A DNA stretch of 30,271 nt from an uncultured Candidatus Peribacteria bacterium (lineage in GTDB: Bacteria > Patescibacteriota > Gracilibacteria > Absconditabacterales > Absconditicoccaceae). The notes beneath the pieces were generated by a model. It did no database searches, was not told the DNA's origin, and saw only the letters and a list, made by a program, of their open reading frames with translations. Where the stretch lies: NCBI GenBank assembly GCA_964633455.1, contig CAZWFZ010000001.1, positions 1 to 30,271 on the forward strand. Reading direction: 5' to 3'. Shown in pieces: positions 5,691-25,429 of the stretch. A program made the translations under genes and the position numbers. How positions within the stretch are numbered: position 1 is the first letter of the stretch; every line of letters starts with the position of its first letter.

Positions 5691-5738
5691 AACCCTCCGG
5701 CTCGTTACACTCGCCACCTCCCTTCTAAAGGGAGGAAC
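5691..5738 (+). repeat. Short variant of the intergenic palindromic repeat family
   Basis: CCTCCGGCTCGTTACACTCGCCACCTCCCTTCTAAAGGGAGGAAC resembles 25361-25429 minus the 20-bp internal module. Confidence 0.7.
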
Positions 5739-7053: not shown

Positions 7054-7116
7054 GTTTCCCCCTTTTAGAAAGGCCTCGGTGCCCGTATGGGTAGGGTGGC
7101 CAAAGGCCGGGGGATT
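7054..7116 (-). repeat. Intergenic palindromic repeat, inverted copy of 25361-25429
   Basis: 7054-7100 is the exact 47-bp reverse complement of 25383-25429; both also share the AATCCCCCGGC end. Confidence 0.92.
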
Positions 7117-19783: not shown

Positions 19784-19855
19784 CAAGGATGCCTGGGCTC
19801 GAACCAAGTCCTTCGGCTTCGGAGGCCGATGTGCTACCAGTAACACCTCATCCTT
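19784..19855 (-). tRNA. tRNA with CCG anticodon, probably charged with Trp (tRNA-Trp(CCG))
   Basis: AAGGATG/CATCCTT acceptor, G73, GTGT-TACTGGTA-GCAC D arm, TCGGC-CTCCGAA-GCCGA anticodon arm, CTTGG-TTCGAGC-CCAGG T arm. tRNA status is well supported; the Trp identity is inferred. Confidence 0.85.
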
Positions 19856-20009
19856 ATGTATACCATTATTGTGTACTGATTTTATATCTATAAGCAAACT
19901 AACGTCTTTATGTATTTTTGACTCAGCTCCATAAAATTTCCGCAATCATTTTTGTAGCTACTCTTGAGTATACATAAAGTGAAACTTTGAAGTTCTCAAG
20001 TACTTTTTT

Positions 20010-20425: not shown

Positions 20426-23400
20426 ATGAATTTGAAAAAATTCGTAGCAGGATTAACAGCTATGGCTGTAGCTGCGTCTAACTTCCTCGGGGGAGTAGCA
20501 GTTGCCCAGCTCAATGATCCTGAGTTCACCACCGCTCTCAATTGGGCGTATGAGAATGAGATGACCAAGTACAACACGGAAAACGGTTTCATGCCTTATG
20601 CTAACATCACAAGAGAACAAGCTTCTAAATTTGTTGATGTGTATGCTATGACCAACTTGTGTCTTTCTCCTGATGCTGATATGGATTGTGATTTCAGCGA
20701 CATCCCTGCAGACGAGTCTTTGGACGAGTATGTAATGTTGTCTTGCCAACTTGGTCTCTTCAAGGGATCAAATGGTAAATTTATGCCAACAGCGCAACTT
20801 ACTAAAGCTCAATTGCTCGCGGTTCTCGTAAGAGCAATCAAAGCAGCAGCTGGTGAAGAGCCTGTATCTGAGGATGCAACTCCTTGGTGGTCTAACTACT
20901 TTACTGAAGCAAAAGAACTCGGCTTGACTAAGGAAACCAATGTAAACGCATTGGATAAGCCTGTGACAAGATATGAGACACTTTTGATGATGTATAGAGC
21001 TAGAATCGAAGATCAATGTAGCACTACTAGTGATGATATCACTGACTTGCTCAAAGATCTCTTCGGTGATGACACAGACACAGACAACGGTACTGGTGAT
21101 GTAGCTCCTACATCTGATGGAACTCTCGAAATCAGTTTGAGTCCTACGACTCCAGCTGGTGACACTGTTCCTGGTTTGTCTAATGTTGTTGTTGCTGAAT
21201 TCGAGGTAACTGCTACAACTGAAGCAGTTATGCTCAACACACTCGAACTCAGAAGATACGGCATCTCAAACGACGATGCAGTAACGAGAGTTAGTTTGTT
21301 CTTGGCAGATGGTACAAGATTGACCAACGGTAAGTCATTCAATAGTGACGATACTGCTCTCTTGAACTTGAGCCCAAGATTGGAAGTAGGTGTTGGTGAA
21401 ACTCACAAAATCAGAGTAATTGCTGAGATTGGTAGTTCTGATGGTCTTAATGGTGCTAACAACCAACAATTCGTTATTGGTATTGAGTCAGCTAATGACG
21501 TAACTACTAATGGTGATGTTGATGGTAACTTCCCAATCAAAGGTAATGAATTCGACGTAGGTGGTGAAAACGCTCCTGAAATCGAAATCACTCCTGATGG
21601 AACTATCTCAGACGTTCAATTGGGTGAGAAGGGTGCAGAAGTTGCTGCTCTTACACTCGACAACAACTCATCTGACGATATCGAGTTGACTCACATTACA
21701 TTCACTGATGGTGAAGGTAATATTGACGACGCTATGATGAACTTCTCACTTGAATGTGATAGCGAGGAAATTGCTACTACTGAAAACGCAAACGGTGACT
21801 ACTTGAGCTTTACATTCGATCCTTACACTGTCAAAGAAGGTGAGTCAATCGATTGTAATATCTACGCTGATGTAGTTGCTAGCGCTGGTGAAGCAATTGC
21901 ACTCTATATTGATGAGTCTCTCGACGTTATGGGTTCTTCTGACTTCGGTTATGGAATTGCAGTTGACGTTGATAACTATCAAGAAGCACAAGCACAAGTT
22001 GTTGATATTCTCGCTGGTGAGTTAACTCTCGTTGAGCAGAATCTCGATGCTGATGAAGTGAGAGAGGATCAAGACGATGTAGTTCTCGGTGAATTCAAAG
22101 TGATTGTGAACAATGGTCAAGCTTTGTACATTGAAGACATCTCTATGGATCTCTTCTCTGATGCTAATGCTAGCTGAGTTGCATTACAACTAATCTTCGA
22201 AAACTTTGAATTGTATGATGTAACACACAATACAAGATACGACTTGAACAACACAAACGGTACTGGTATTGTATTGAGCGAAGAGAACATCGATATCTAT
22301 CTCCCAGATTCTGGTGAGACTGTTCTCCAAGTTAGAGCTGATACAGTTACTACCTTCCCAGGTAACGTTGCTGATATGGTAACAGTTCATCTCGAACTCG
22401 ATGCTAACCCAGCTAACGGTGACTTGGTAATCAAAGAGTCTGATGACGATGAGCAAGTTATGGACCTCGTTCCATCATTCATCTCATTTGATGGTGTTGA
22501 TTTGGTAGATTCTTCTGTAGACGTTACTGAGATCACATTGTCTGATACTTCTGTAGTAAGAGGTGCTGAGGATGTAGTTGCTCTTCAATTCCAGGTTGAG
22601 ACTGATTCAGTTTCATCTGCATTCTTGCAAGAGATCGCTATCCAAGGTACAGTTAACTTCAACACAGACGTTGTATCTGCAGTTTCATTGTTCAGAGGTA
22701 CTCCTAGTGGAACACACACTCTCGTAGAGTCAAATGGTGGATTTGATATCAATTCAAACTCTATCACCTTTGATAACTTCGATGAGATTGAAGTTCCTCT
22801 CAACTCTACTCAACCGTTCTTCGTAACGATTGATGTAGTTGATGATCCTATGAACGTTGGTTTAACTCTCGCATTGAGTGTTGATCAGACTCCACTTCCA
22901 AAGCTTGATGATGACAACAACAATGATATGGATGTTAATGTAACAAGTGCTGGTTCTAGAACTATGACTATCAGTAACTTCGGTACATTGGCTTGTGACT
23001 TCGACGTAAATGACGAAGAAACAGACATTCCTTCTATCGTTCTTGGTGGTGAAGAATCTAACTACTTGGCTAGCTTTGACTTCAATGCTCAAAACGAAGA
23101 CATTTGGGTAAGAGATATCTTGATTACTGCTTCTCCTGCTCTCAATTTCGTATCTGCATTTGAAGAAGTTATCTTGTCTGATGAAGATGGTAACGAATTG
23201 TACAGAGAAATAGTTACTTCTAATGCTATGTACCTCAATGAAATTGAGACTGCTAGCGGTGCTGAATTCATCATCACTGAAGGTAGTACTAACTTGTATG
23301 TATCATTGGTTGCATCTATCATCGGTAAAAACCAAAATGGTGTAGAAGCTGGTGCTTACAACCTCTCTATGAGTGTTCAACAAGCTGAAGGTGTAAGTTC

Positions 23401-24019
23401 TAATGACGATGTTGCTACTACTATTGTTCCTGTGAACTGTGGTGGTACATCTGAAGACTTTATGTCTAGAGCAGTTGCTATCTCTACTGTTGATCTCGTT
23501 AGCTCAGCTGGAAGTACTAGCTTGCCTACTTACCTCTCAAATGGTGTAAGTAACAAACTCGGTATCGTTAAGGTTGTTGCTGATTCATGGGATAACAATG
23601 ATCCTGCTGATGCTTCAAGCATTAACATTGAACTTACAGGATTGAGAGTAGAATTCGAAAACGGTACTGAAGATCCTGTAGCTGGTGTTACACTGAAGAA
23701 AGTTGGTAAGACTCTTACTACTACTCCACAAGCAGTAGCTGCTGGTACTAATATTGTTGTATTCGACATGACACAATTGTCTGCGGATTCTGACAATATT
23801 GTTCAGGAAGGTCAAACAGTATACTACGTGATCGAAGGTACTCCAGTTGTAGACGATCCTAGTGAATCAATTAGAATCAACTTGTCTGATTTGTATGGCG
23901 CAACCGCTAACCCATCATTCAGTTACAGAGGAGATTTCGTTGGTGCTTTGAGCACTAATGCTATCTACCTCGAAGATTCTGAAATCGATGGTATCTTGCT
24001 CGTAGACAACAACAACTAA
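20426..24019 (+). CDS. S-layer-like surface protein: signal peptide, three SLH domains, long acidic beta-rich repeats, 1197 aa
   Basis: Track ORFs 20357-22177 and 22211-24019 are one frame split by a single TGA. SLH-like segments FMPYANITREQ, GLFKGSNGKFMPTAQLTKAQ, LDKPVTRYE; strongly biased codon usage. Confidence 0.88.
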
Positions 24020-24051
24020 TCATTGTTTAGTCTATCAGTTAAGTACATATG

Positions 24052-24088
24052 GAGAAGTCCTTGGCCTCGGCCAGGGGCTTTTCTTTTT
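24052..24088 (+). terminator. Rho-independent terminator of the S-layer gene
   Basis: 14-bp stem GAGAAGTCCTTGGC / GCCAGGGGCTTTTC with CTCG loop and a T tract. Confidence 0.85.
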
Positions 24089-24157
24089 GGTGAAAAATAA
24101 GTATAATTAAATAAACAGTCTAATCTTTAATAGCTAGAAGTAGGTGATTTTTGATTT

Positions 24158-24193
24158 AAAGAAAGTGTCCTGCAAAGCAGGTCCTTTCTTTTT
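24158..24193 (+). terminator. Second terminator-like hairpin
   Basis: AAAGAAAG-TGT-CCTGC-AAA-GCAGG-TC-CTTTCTTTTT. Confidence 0.6.
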
Positions 24194-24227
24194 CGTAAAA
24201 AATGATATGGTATTAGTTTTTCTTTTA

Positions 24228-24537
24228 TGTATAAGCACTGTTGTTGAAAGTTAATCCCGCAGCTTACAGCAAGCGGGATCATTGCATCAATCATACTTCG
24301 TTATGAAGATGCAAAGATTCTTACTTCTATAAGTATTCGCATACCTTCGGTATACTTAACTTATAGAGGGTGATTTAAGGTTGAATAAGTGTTGGTAGGT
24401 ATAGTCGTTGAGATAAGGGTGGTTACCTCAAGGGTAATAAATGGAAGTAAGGCAAACCCGCTGACGCCTCCCTTATCAATAATACTGTTACTCGATCTGT
24501 CACATCATTTGACCTGGTTCGTATCCTGATTATATGC
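24228..24537 (+). ncRNA. Candidate ~300-nt structured RNA of unassigned family
   Basis: Four helical domains, two UUCG loops (24297-24300, 24346-24349), a long rod 24378-24515 with G-U pairs; no ORF. Confidence 0.55.
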
Positions 24538-24567
24538 TTTCCTATTTTATATTTCCCTATTTATGAG

Positions 24568-25359
24568 ATGAAAAGAGTTGTTTTTCTCCTGTTCACTACG
24601 TTCTTTTTGGCGGGTTGTTCACTTACCGACACCAAAGTAGCATTTGAGAACTTTATAAATAGTCTTCTCCAAAAAGACCAAGCACACGAACAGTGATTTG
24701 TGCTGACCGCGAGCGAAGTAAGTACACGTTTTTACCGTGATGAGACGGGCATTGACCTGAGTAAGCTAGGCCTAACTGCAGTTCCTGATCTCTGTGCCCT
24801 TGTAAGCCCAGAAGAGTACGATTTGGTGCGGTTTTTGGACCTTTCTCAGAATAAAATCAGGATCGTAGATCAAAATTTGGACTGTTTTCAGTATCTCCAA
24901 GTGATCAACCTCTCCTACAACGAGATTCAGCAAGTAGTGACACTGGGTACGCTCCCTAGACTCAAGGACTTGAGACTCCAAAAAAACCAAATAACTACTA
25001 CTGAAAATTTTCCTCCACTCACCGGATTGACGAGATTAAACCTTGCATACAATCAAATCACCGTAGTACAAGACCTAGAGAAACTTATTAACCTCAAAGA
25101 GCTTGAACTCCAACATAATGTGATAGAGGAGTTTATTGGTGCAGAGAAAATGCAACAACTCGAGCGTCTCAAGCTTGAATTCAATAAACTCTCCAACGTT
25201 GACTTCCTCAAGGAAATTAAATCTCTCTTCACCGTTAGTGTCGGAGGCAATCAACTTCCACCAGAAATCGAGGCAATTTGGAAGGCGTTTAGTCCTGTCT
25301 TCAAAGTGGGCTGATCAGGTAGCGTAGCAGCCACCGGCGCTGCATGAACAGGCCAGTAG
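24568..25359 (+). CDS. Leucine-rich-repeat lipoprotein, 263 aa
   Basis: MKRVVFLLFTTFFLAGC lipobox; ~22-aa LxxLxLxxNxI repeats; TAG at 25357-25359 after two further TGA. Confidence 0.88.
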
Positions 25360-25360
25360 A

Positions 25361-25429
25361 AATCCCCCGGCTCGCTTCACTCGCCACCCTACCCATACGG
25401 GCACCGAGGCCTTTCTAAAAGGGGGAAAC
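25361..25429 (+). repeat. Intergenic palindromic repeat (long variant)
   Basis: 47 bp identical in inverted orientation to 7054-7100; begins 1 nt after the LRR stop codon. Confidence 0.92.

Follow-up and report, generated by a model that had tools for sequence, protein, structure and literature searches.

The DNA between positions 24228 and 24537 of the window, i.e., the 30,271-nt stretch of contig CAZWFZ010000001.1 (GenBank assembly GCA_964633455.1) of an uncultured member of the Absconditabacterales, is probably a patchwork spacer of independently evolving pieces and not one RNA gene. It is best read as a composite spacer, likely to correspond with a long 5' leader, that separates the tandem terminators of an S-layer-like gene from a gene coding for an LRR lipoprotein. 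Each of the rival explanations that are weighed below is less likely.

The window was read with genetic code 25 (TGA = Gly). The interval follows an S-layer-like gene with its stop at 24019 and precedes, on the plus strand, the LRR lipoprotein gene (24568..25359; code 25), the product of which carries a signal peptide with a LAGC lipobox and the Pfam domains LRR_4, LRR_8, and LPAM_1, and has orthologues. Two terminator structures occur on the plus strand behind the S-layer-like gene. The first is an intrinsic terminator (24051..24084), retrieved as a terminator-like site in the scan, the hairpin of which is kept in a related genome (G001) with a different stem sequence. The second is a bidirectional-looking terminator hairpin (24158..24191), retrieved both as an inverted repeat and in the terminator scan, with CCTGCAAAGCAGG as its core and AAAGAAAG and CTTTCTTT as its flanks; this hairpin is conserved in G001. 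The region is thus situated between the 24019 stop and the 24568 start, 3' of two terminators, and interrupts no gene, as a first, sequence-only reading of this DNA had stated. An open reading frame at 24389-24640 was rejected as coding, given a 7-nt indel in G001. In a more distant relative (L055:1683-2106), a 101-nt unit that comprises the second S-layer terminator and the hairpins upstream of it is repeated 4.2 times in tandem with 97% identity. Each of these units contains a short hairpin (GATAAGGGTAGTACTTATC), the first 13 nt of which are those of the P1 strand of a core hairpin located at 24412..24477, so that the terminator unit and the core may be related by an old duplication.

The genome of the window (G000; 1.22 Mb, 88% complete) was compared with G001, a Candidatus Absconditabacterales MAG of the same genus with the same flanking genes, encoding proteins that are 93-95% identical. 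Three more spacers (L055, L057, and L058) were reached via homologues of the LRR lipoprotein. The L055 lipoprotein shows 85% protein identity, L055 being more distant than G001; the L058 contig starts at 24376 and L057 has just 90 nt upstream, so that the region of hairpins A to C is visible in neither. The lipoprotein gene served as a yardstick, with identities, overall and at third codon positions, of 90.5% and 76% between G000 and G001 and of 76% and 54% between G000 and L055. A protein-anchored scan of JGI metagenomes yielded no relatives, and a blastn search of a phage collection gave no match.

The sequence-only reading had proposed a single multi-domain RNA of about 300 nt with partial group I intron-like signatures. 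Much of the pairing on which it relied is indeed found. Hairpin A (24254-24260/24273-24279), helix C with its cUUCGg loop, the helix formed by GATAAGGG and CCCTTATC (24412-24419/24470-24477), and the 7-mer alternative pairings are all present. Hairpin B occurs where it was described as well, but its loop is CUUCGU with a C.U closing mismatch and not the canonical C(UUCG)G. The 310-nt interval has a minimum free energy of -83.8 kcal/mol (z -2.26), and 2 of the 100 shuffles were equally good, which is a modest excess. Nearly all of this signal comes from 24234-24372, covering hairpins A to C, with z-values of -4.6 on the plus strand and -5.8 on the minus strand; values for rod D (24373-24520) were -1.4 and -1.7 and those for its inner core -2.0 and -2.2. 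As the minus strand folds at least as well as the plus strand, 24234-24372 consists of DNA-level palindromes. The G001 spacer aligns end to end with that of G000, except for precisely this 139-nt stretch, which is reduced to 9 nt. The idea of one RNA thus fails, in that 139 nt of it are an indel between close species, part of it is a dispersed repeat, and rod D lacks covariation. One multi-domain noncoding RNA or group I-like derived ribozyme spanning 24228-24537 is therefore most improbable: the hairpins are there, the fold is somewhat better than that of shuffled sequence, and no known family accounts for the region, but more than the loss in the sister species weighs against it, since neither rod D nor the closing helix is conserved, group I models do not match, no gene is interrupted, and RNA contigs are lacking over the region whereas the neighbouring S-layer mRNA was assembled at a depth of 18.7.

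Known RNA families do not explain the locus either. At gathering score, Rfam 15 retrieved just two tRNAs in the whole window and no family in ten repeat-bearing loci; among the models run were those of group I introns, RNase P, and tmRNA, without a match at this locus. At E<=10, the segment 24100-24650 and the L055 spacer gave chance-level sRNA matches only (E 0.6-5.7), and a search of the whole genome with the group I model (RF00028) gave four weak matches, none of them at this locus. The likeness to group I introns (RF00028 and subfamilies) is limited to two short resemblances to the Q and S elements. The Q-like element (24253-24263) lies inside hairpin A and is absent from G001 and L055, whereas the S-like element (24397-24407) falls in the fastest-evolving stretch, which is 64% identical to G001. 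Unlike group I introns, the region has no covariance-model match, P and R partners, or host gene. The suggestion of a derived ribozyme, resting on these two elements, was consequently abandoned.

Three other identities were considered and rejected. Firstly, a divergent tmRNA was set aside, as the tmRNA of the sister species G002 is canonical (G002:C22:5496-5898, at a contig end) and without similarity to this region, and the T-loop-like stem of the candidate is not conserved. ARAGORN found no tmRNA in the window or the genome, and RF00023 gave tRNA-sized matches only; the tmRNA of G000 is just unassembled, because G002 possesses a canonical one without likeness to the locus. A tmRNA was undetectable in the G000 and G001 assemblies alike. 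A hairpin-B-like element (AATCAACCATACTTCGTTATGGAGATT) was noticed about 15 nt upstream of the 5' end of the G002 tmRNA (L026, L065). Secondly, RNase P RNA did not match at the locus, and the RNase P RNA of the genome is encoded on another contig (G000:C39:4896-5265, L001; RF00010 full-length, 69 bits, E 3e-21). Its 69 bits are below the 100-bit gathering score, and it would therefore be missed by standard annotation. Thirdly, the GGCAAACC...GACGCC stretch resembles c-di-GMP-I or fluoride motifs to some extent, but neither identity found support in the covariance models.

The part of the interval that folds best is made up of repeat modules, all described here on the plus strand. Hairpin A (24254..24279) is an inverted repeat, consisting of a GC-rich CCCGCAG...GCGGG module followed by ATCATTG. 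Hairpin B (24279..24322) is a dispersed, genus-restricted palindromic repeat module with the base CATTG...CAAAG. Hairpin C (24320..24372) is a nested module with the outer stem CTTCTATAAG/CTTATAGAGG and an inner cUUCGg hairpin. Copies of the hairpin B region (24275-24332) with 92-100% identity occur elsewhere in G000 (C129, C41), in G001, and in G002, adding up to 3 clear copies in G000, 3-4 in G001, and 4-7 in G002; none were detected in the other 58 genomes searched. Near-identical copies of hairpins A and C were not found. The nine B-copy neighbourhoods share a common order, namely a variable GC-rich hairpin, (A/G)TCATTG, hairpin B, and CAAAG, the latter being followed by either an ATATCxCTAACGxGAT hairpin or a longer hairpin that begins with ATTCxxACTTCTA. 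A GC hairpin with (A/G)TCATTG stands directly 5' of B in 5 of the 9 other B copies, and cccgcag..ctgcggg hairpins are present in L010, L018, and L020 too. Similarly, the 5' base of hairpin C, ATTC(T/A/C)(T/C)ACTTCTA, recurs 3' of B in L010 and L013 with different interiors. Both the A (CCCGCAG...GCGGG and ATCATTG) and the C (ATTCTTACTTCTA...) of the window match this layout exactly. Comparison of these arrays identifies A, B, and in some lineages C, as members of a family of nested, modular palindromic hairpin repeats that is specific to this genus. Short-motif counts at the module junctions were uninformative, and stop-to-stop ORF calling round the B copies was too noisy to give the orientation of the repeats relative to genes.

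The modules are gained and lost at one place. In L055, hairpin C is present (48/54 identical) and hairpins A and B are replaced by a different 23-nt hairpin. Because the spacers of G000, G001, and L055 differ in the A to C region, the site right after the conserved TTTATGTATA box (CTTTTATGTATA) is identified by the alignment as a hot spot of hairpin gain and loss. Short dispersed repeats amount to 53 kb (4.4%) of the 1.22-Mb genome. A second family of GC-rich modular palindromic repeats, unrelated in sequence to hairpin B, occurs just 3' of genes in the window (5691-5738, 7054-7100, and 25383-25429), one copy being directly 3' of the LRR lipoprotein gene.

Among known systems, the REP/BIME elements of proteobacteria, which bear a GTAG or CGTC tetranucleotide tag at one end (PMC3733652), come close to hairpins A to C. 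Both are short imperfect palindromes, restricted to intergenic DNA and dispersed in several copies, that occur in mosaic arrays with other hairpin types, often 3' of genes, and vary in presence between close relatives. Unlike REP/BIME elements, hairpin B is present in 3-7 copies per genome instead of tens to hundreds, the module ends are CATTG...CAAAG without GTAG or CGTC, and the units are nested, with 'plug-in' hairpins inside longer hairpins with a CATTG...CAAAG base, and confined to one Absconditabacterales genus. A RAYT (Y1 transposase, PF01797) was not found in G000, an absence that is unproven in an assembly that is 88% complete.

Long nested hairpin modules with the base CATTG...CAAAG and an A.A mismatch were also seen in L011 (1600-1660), L010 (150-215, minus strand), and L019. 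They have A/T-run shoulders and a small inner hairpin (ATCACTAACGTGAT), and their U-G pairs form only in the orientation of hairpin B, which hints at a role at the RNA level. A more far-reaching proposal is that an undescribed system of nested 'plug-in' hairpin modules exists in this Absconditabacterales genus and that the core hairpin is a domesticated member that regulates the surface LRR lipoprotein. Such modules, variable in their interiors but with a conserved base (CATTG...CAAAG or ATTC...GAAAT) and with G-U pairs on one strand only, would then be inserted 3' of genes and at leader 5' ends, and would act at the RNA level. This proposal is considered unlikely.

Downstream of the modules, the sequence-only reading had drawn a long rod (D), a T-loop-like motif, and a helix closing the whole structure. 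Rod D is present in the minimum-free-energy fold of G000, but its pairing does not exceed the level of shuffled sequence and its two strands have discordant histories. In a four-sequence alignment, its outer helices were 82.5% paired versus 81.2% in column shuffles, and 151 of the 500 shuffles were as high. The 5' strand (24373..24411, plus strand), a fast-evolving flank that contains the 'S-like' AGGTATAGTCG, is 64% identical to G001, 67% to L058, and 85% to the more distant L055; the 3' strand (24478..24515, plus strand), including an invariant TGTCAC, is 90% identical to G001 (with a 7-nt gap) and 50% to L055. Between G001 and L058, the 3' strand is the same and the 5' strand differs greatly. 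As such discordant strand histories are not those of a co-evolving helix, rod D is a fold of the AT-rich sequence of this genome only. The T-loop-like motif (GGTTCGTATCC) does exist, but its GG/CC stem is not conserved, its counterpart being AG..CC in G001 and L055 and AT..AG in L057; in G000, it falls in the spacer of a promoter-like site at 24509-24538. The possible closing helix (24228-24234/24530-24536) is not conserved in L055.

One segment behaves differently. Hairpin C and the next 39 nt (24319-24411) are 87% identical to L055:2268-2360, compared with 76% for the adjacent gene and 54% for its third codon positions. In G001, the closer relative, C has been lost and identity across those 39 nt is 64%. 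Exchange or strong constraint of this segment may be behind the pattern, and the patchwork model explains neither.

One part of the hairpin-bearing region is conserved, namely the core hairpin (24412..24477, plus strand). It comprises helix P1 of 8 bp (GATAAGGG/CCCTTATC), three more pairs, the apical hairpin P2 of 5 bp, and a 29-nt purine-rich 3' internal loop. The core is identical at 64 of its 66 positions (97%) to G001 and likewise to L058, versus 76% at third codon positions (P about 4e-6), and it is 72% identical to L055 (P 0.002), which points to purifying selection. In a covariance-model alignment, 16 of the 16 pairs are kept in four sequences. Double-sided changes were found at three pairs, all of them in the single sequence L055 and in an alignment fitted to the model: A-U to G-C in helix P1, and C-G to U-A plus U-G to G-C in apical hairpin P2. 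The first two only are convincing physically, as the last one would leave a 1-nt loop. Regarding pairing and double-sided changes together, 11 of the 500 shuffles and none of the slid controls were as good. A secondary structure with helices P1 and P2 maintained through compensatory changes is hence rated as probable and not as established, because it depends on one informative sequence and a model-fitted alignment. Two U-G pairs of the core form on the plus strand only. The core is single-copy and, among 61 genomes of the family and 141 of the order, present in G000 and G001 only, besides the metagenome contigs L055 and L058. An exact-pattern scan of a metagenome collection with a 26-mer of the core gave 0 hits, and a 20-mer search of GTDB genomes returned only G001, plus chance matches in unrelated GC-rich genomes. 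A conserved open reading frame in the core is excluded by indels in L055; in particular, a micro-ORF (ATG at 24441, 13 codons, code 25) loses both its ATG and its frame there.

Two explanations of the core can be set against these data. The first takes the core, with or without hairpin C, as a new lineage-specific cis-regulatory RNA, possibly a riboswitch-like or regulator-binding leader controlling the LRR lipoprotein gene. The core indeed lies on the sense strand upstream of the lipoprotein gene in all four lineages with sequence there, is non-coding, is conserved above the neutral proxy with compensatory changes in both helices, and has a large, partly conserved purine-rich internal loop. 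Yet this internal loop differs substantially in L055, an expression platform was not found, the core being more than 90 nt from the start codon without a terminator-like site, and the downstream LRR lipoprotein gene offers no metabolic hint. Moreover, the core is limited to one narrow clade, so that the recurrence across many genomes or genes that marks riboswitches and other cis-regulatory leaders is missing, and RNA contigs over the region are lacking. This explanation is therefore doubtful. The second takes everything, including the core, as functionless selfish or relic hairpin DNA, with the conservation of the core resulting from low local mutation or recent exchange. The richness of the genome in hairpin repeats (with its 53 kb of short dispersed repeats), the truncated core-like hairpin (GATAAGGGTAGTACTTATC) within the tandem unit of L055, and the mosaic of similarity along the spacer would fit; a single copy per genome at the same position in four lineages, with substitutions that preserve pairing, would not, making this explanation quite improbable. 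Most likely, the core would act in cis within the leader of the lipoprotein mRNA, as a structural element or a protein-binding site.

Whether the spacer is read as a leader depends on where transcription starts. Upstream of the hairpins, a promoter-like site (24208..24235, plus strand; putative promoter P1) combines TGGTAT, a 16-nt spacer, and TATAAG, with the box TTTATGTATA over the -10 region. It is weak at -35 (2-3/6). The block 24196-24233 that contains most of it is 100% identical in G001, and L055 keeps TGGACT-16-TATATA and the CTTTTATGTATA box. Across the genome, the TTTATGTATA box has TTGACA (at least 5/6) at 16-18 nt upstream in 11 of its 235 occurrences, versus 9 of the 857 for five permuted boxes. 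This about 4.5-fold enrichment for a correctly spaced TTGACA argues that the box behaves like a -10 region of this organism. Transcription may thus start near 24242, about 7 nt after TATAAG, giving a leader of about 325 nt, or about 190 nt in G001; intrinsic terminator-like sites were absent from the plus strand between 24236 and 24567. The S-layer gene has a long structured leader, and two TTATGTAT(A/T) boxes resembling that at 24224 precede it at 19853-19916; a promoter box of this kind with a long hairpin-rich leader behind it may be common to the two surface-protein genes.

The alternative promoter-like site (24509..24538, plus strand; promoter P2) is TTGACC-18-TATGCT. A promoter there would put the whole structure upstream of the transcript, and the conserved blocks (GATAAGGG...CCCTTATC, TGTCAC, and a TCGTA box) could then be transcription factor sites in DNA. 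That it is the single sigma-70-like match in the scan speaks for this explanation, as do TGTCAC and TCGTA, which do not vary among five lineages and keep a nearly constant distance to the ATG. Helix P1 is, furthermore, a perfect palindrome that folds equally on both strands and would serve equally well as a DNA site. However, one sigma-70-like match versus 1.8 expected is within chance, and its -35 is conserved in neither G001 nor L055. Additionally, the compensatory change in apical hairpin P2 and the U-G pairs restricted to the plus strand favour an RNA or a cruciform over half-sites 50 nt apart. DNA sites for a downstream promoter are thus an unlikely explanation of the conserved blocks.

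Metatranscriptome data cover the upstream gene. The organism is present in wastewater and sludge metatranscriptomes (X6, X9, and X20). Contigs X6 and X9, from a strain that is about 97% identical, cover 23400-24063 of the window at depths of 18.7 and 7.6, and X6 (3386 nt) covers the S-layer-like gene and ends at 24063. As these contigs cover the gene and end at the terminator, the S-layer-like gene is expressed in situ and its first terminator appears to work. The contigs of three metatranscriptomes had nothing over 24070-24700, an observation from Logan contigs, which cannot show absence, and a run search found no RNA runs holding 24236-24545. An abundant, stable noncoding RNA such as RNase P RNA or 6S RNA would probably have appeared among the contigs beside the S-layer mRNA.

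Returning to the composite spacer as a leader, transcription would start near 24242 and read through into the lipoprotein gene. The A to C modules would be transcribed as stable 5' stem-loops that, at most, shield the 5' end of the mRNA from decay; they are dispensable, as relatives are without them. The core hairpin, on the plus-strand RNA, would act in cis as a protein-binding or stability element of the leader and not as a ligand sensor. The regulatory leader that had been proposed for the LRR lipoprotein gene thus survives in a reduced form only, with a conserved promoter-like box, no terminator in between, and a conserved 66-nt hairpin. In S-layer and other surface-protein mRNAs, such as those of ompA and the slpA of Lactobacillus, long structured 5' leaders stabilise the transcript. 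The putative leader of about 325 nt, rich in stem-loops and situated after a promoter-like box and before a cell-surface protein gene, resembles these. It differs in that its start site is predicted only and in that most of its hairpins are dispensable repeat modules instead of a conserved leader structure.

These results remove the candidate for a new ribozyme or noncoding RNA class. Most of its structure is a side effect of palindromic repeat modules, and these modules inflate the folding signals of intergenic DNA in this genus. There remains a hairpin of a narrow clade, with some covariation, upstream of a surface-protein gene. There is also evidence that modular hairpin repeats of a family prone to turnover persist in a lineage of the candidate phyla radiation, the genome of which measures 1.2 Mb. 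No long-standing question is made testable by these findings. If these modules were transcribed 5' or 3' stabilisers, they would have a bearing on the control of mRNA decay in an uncultured, recoded (TGA = Gly) lineage.
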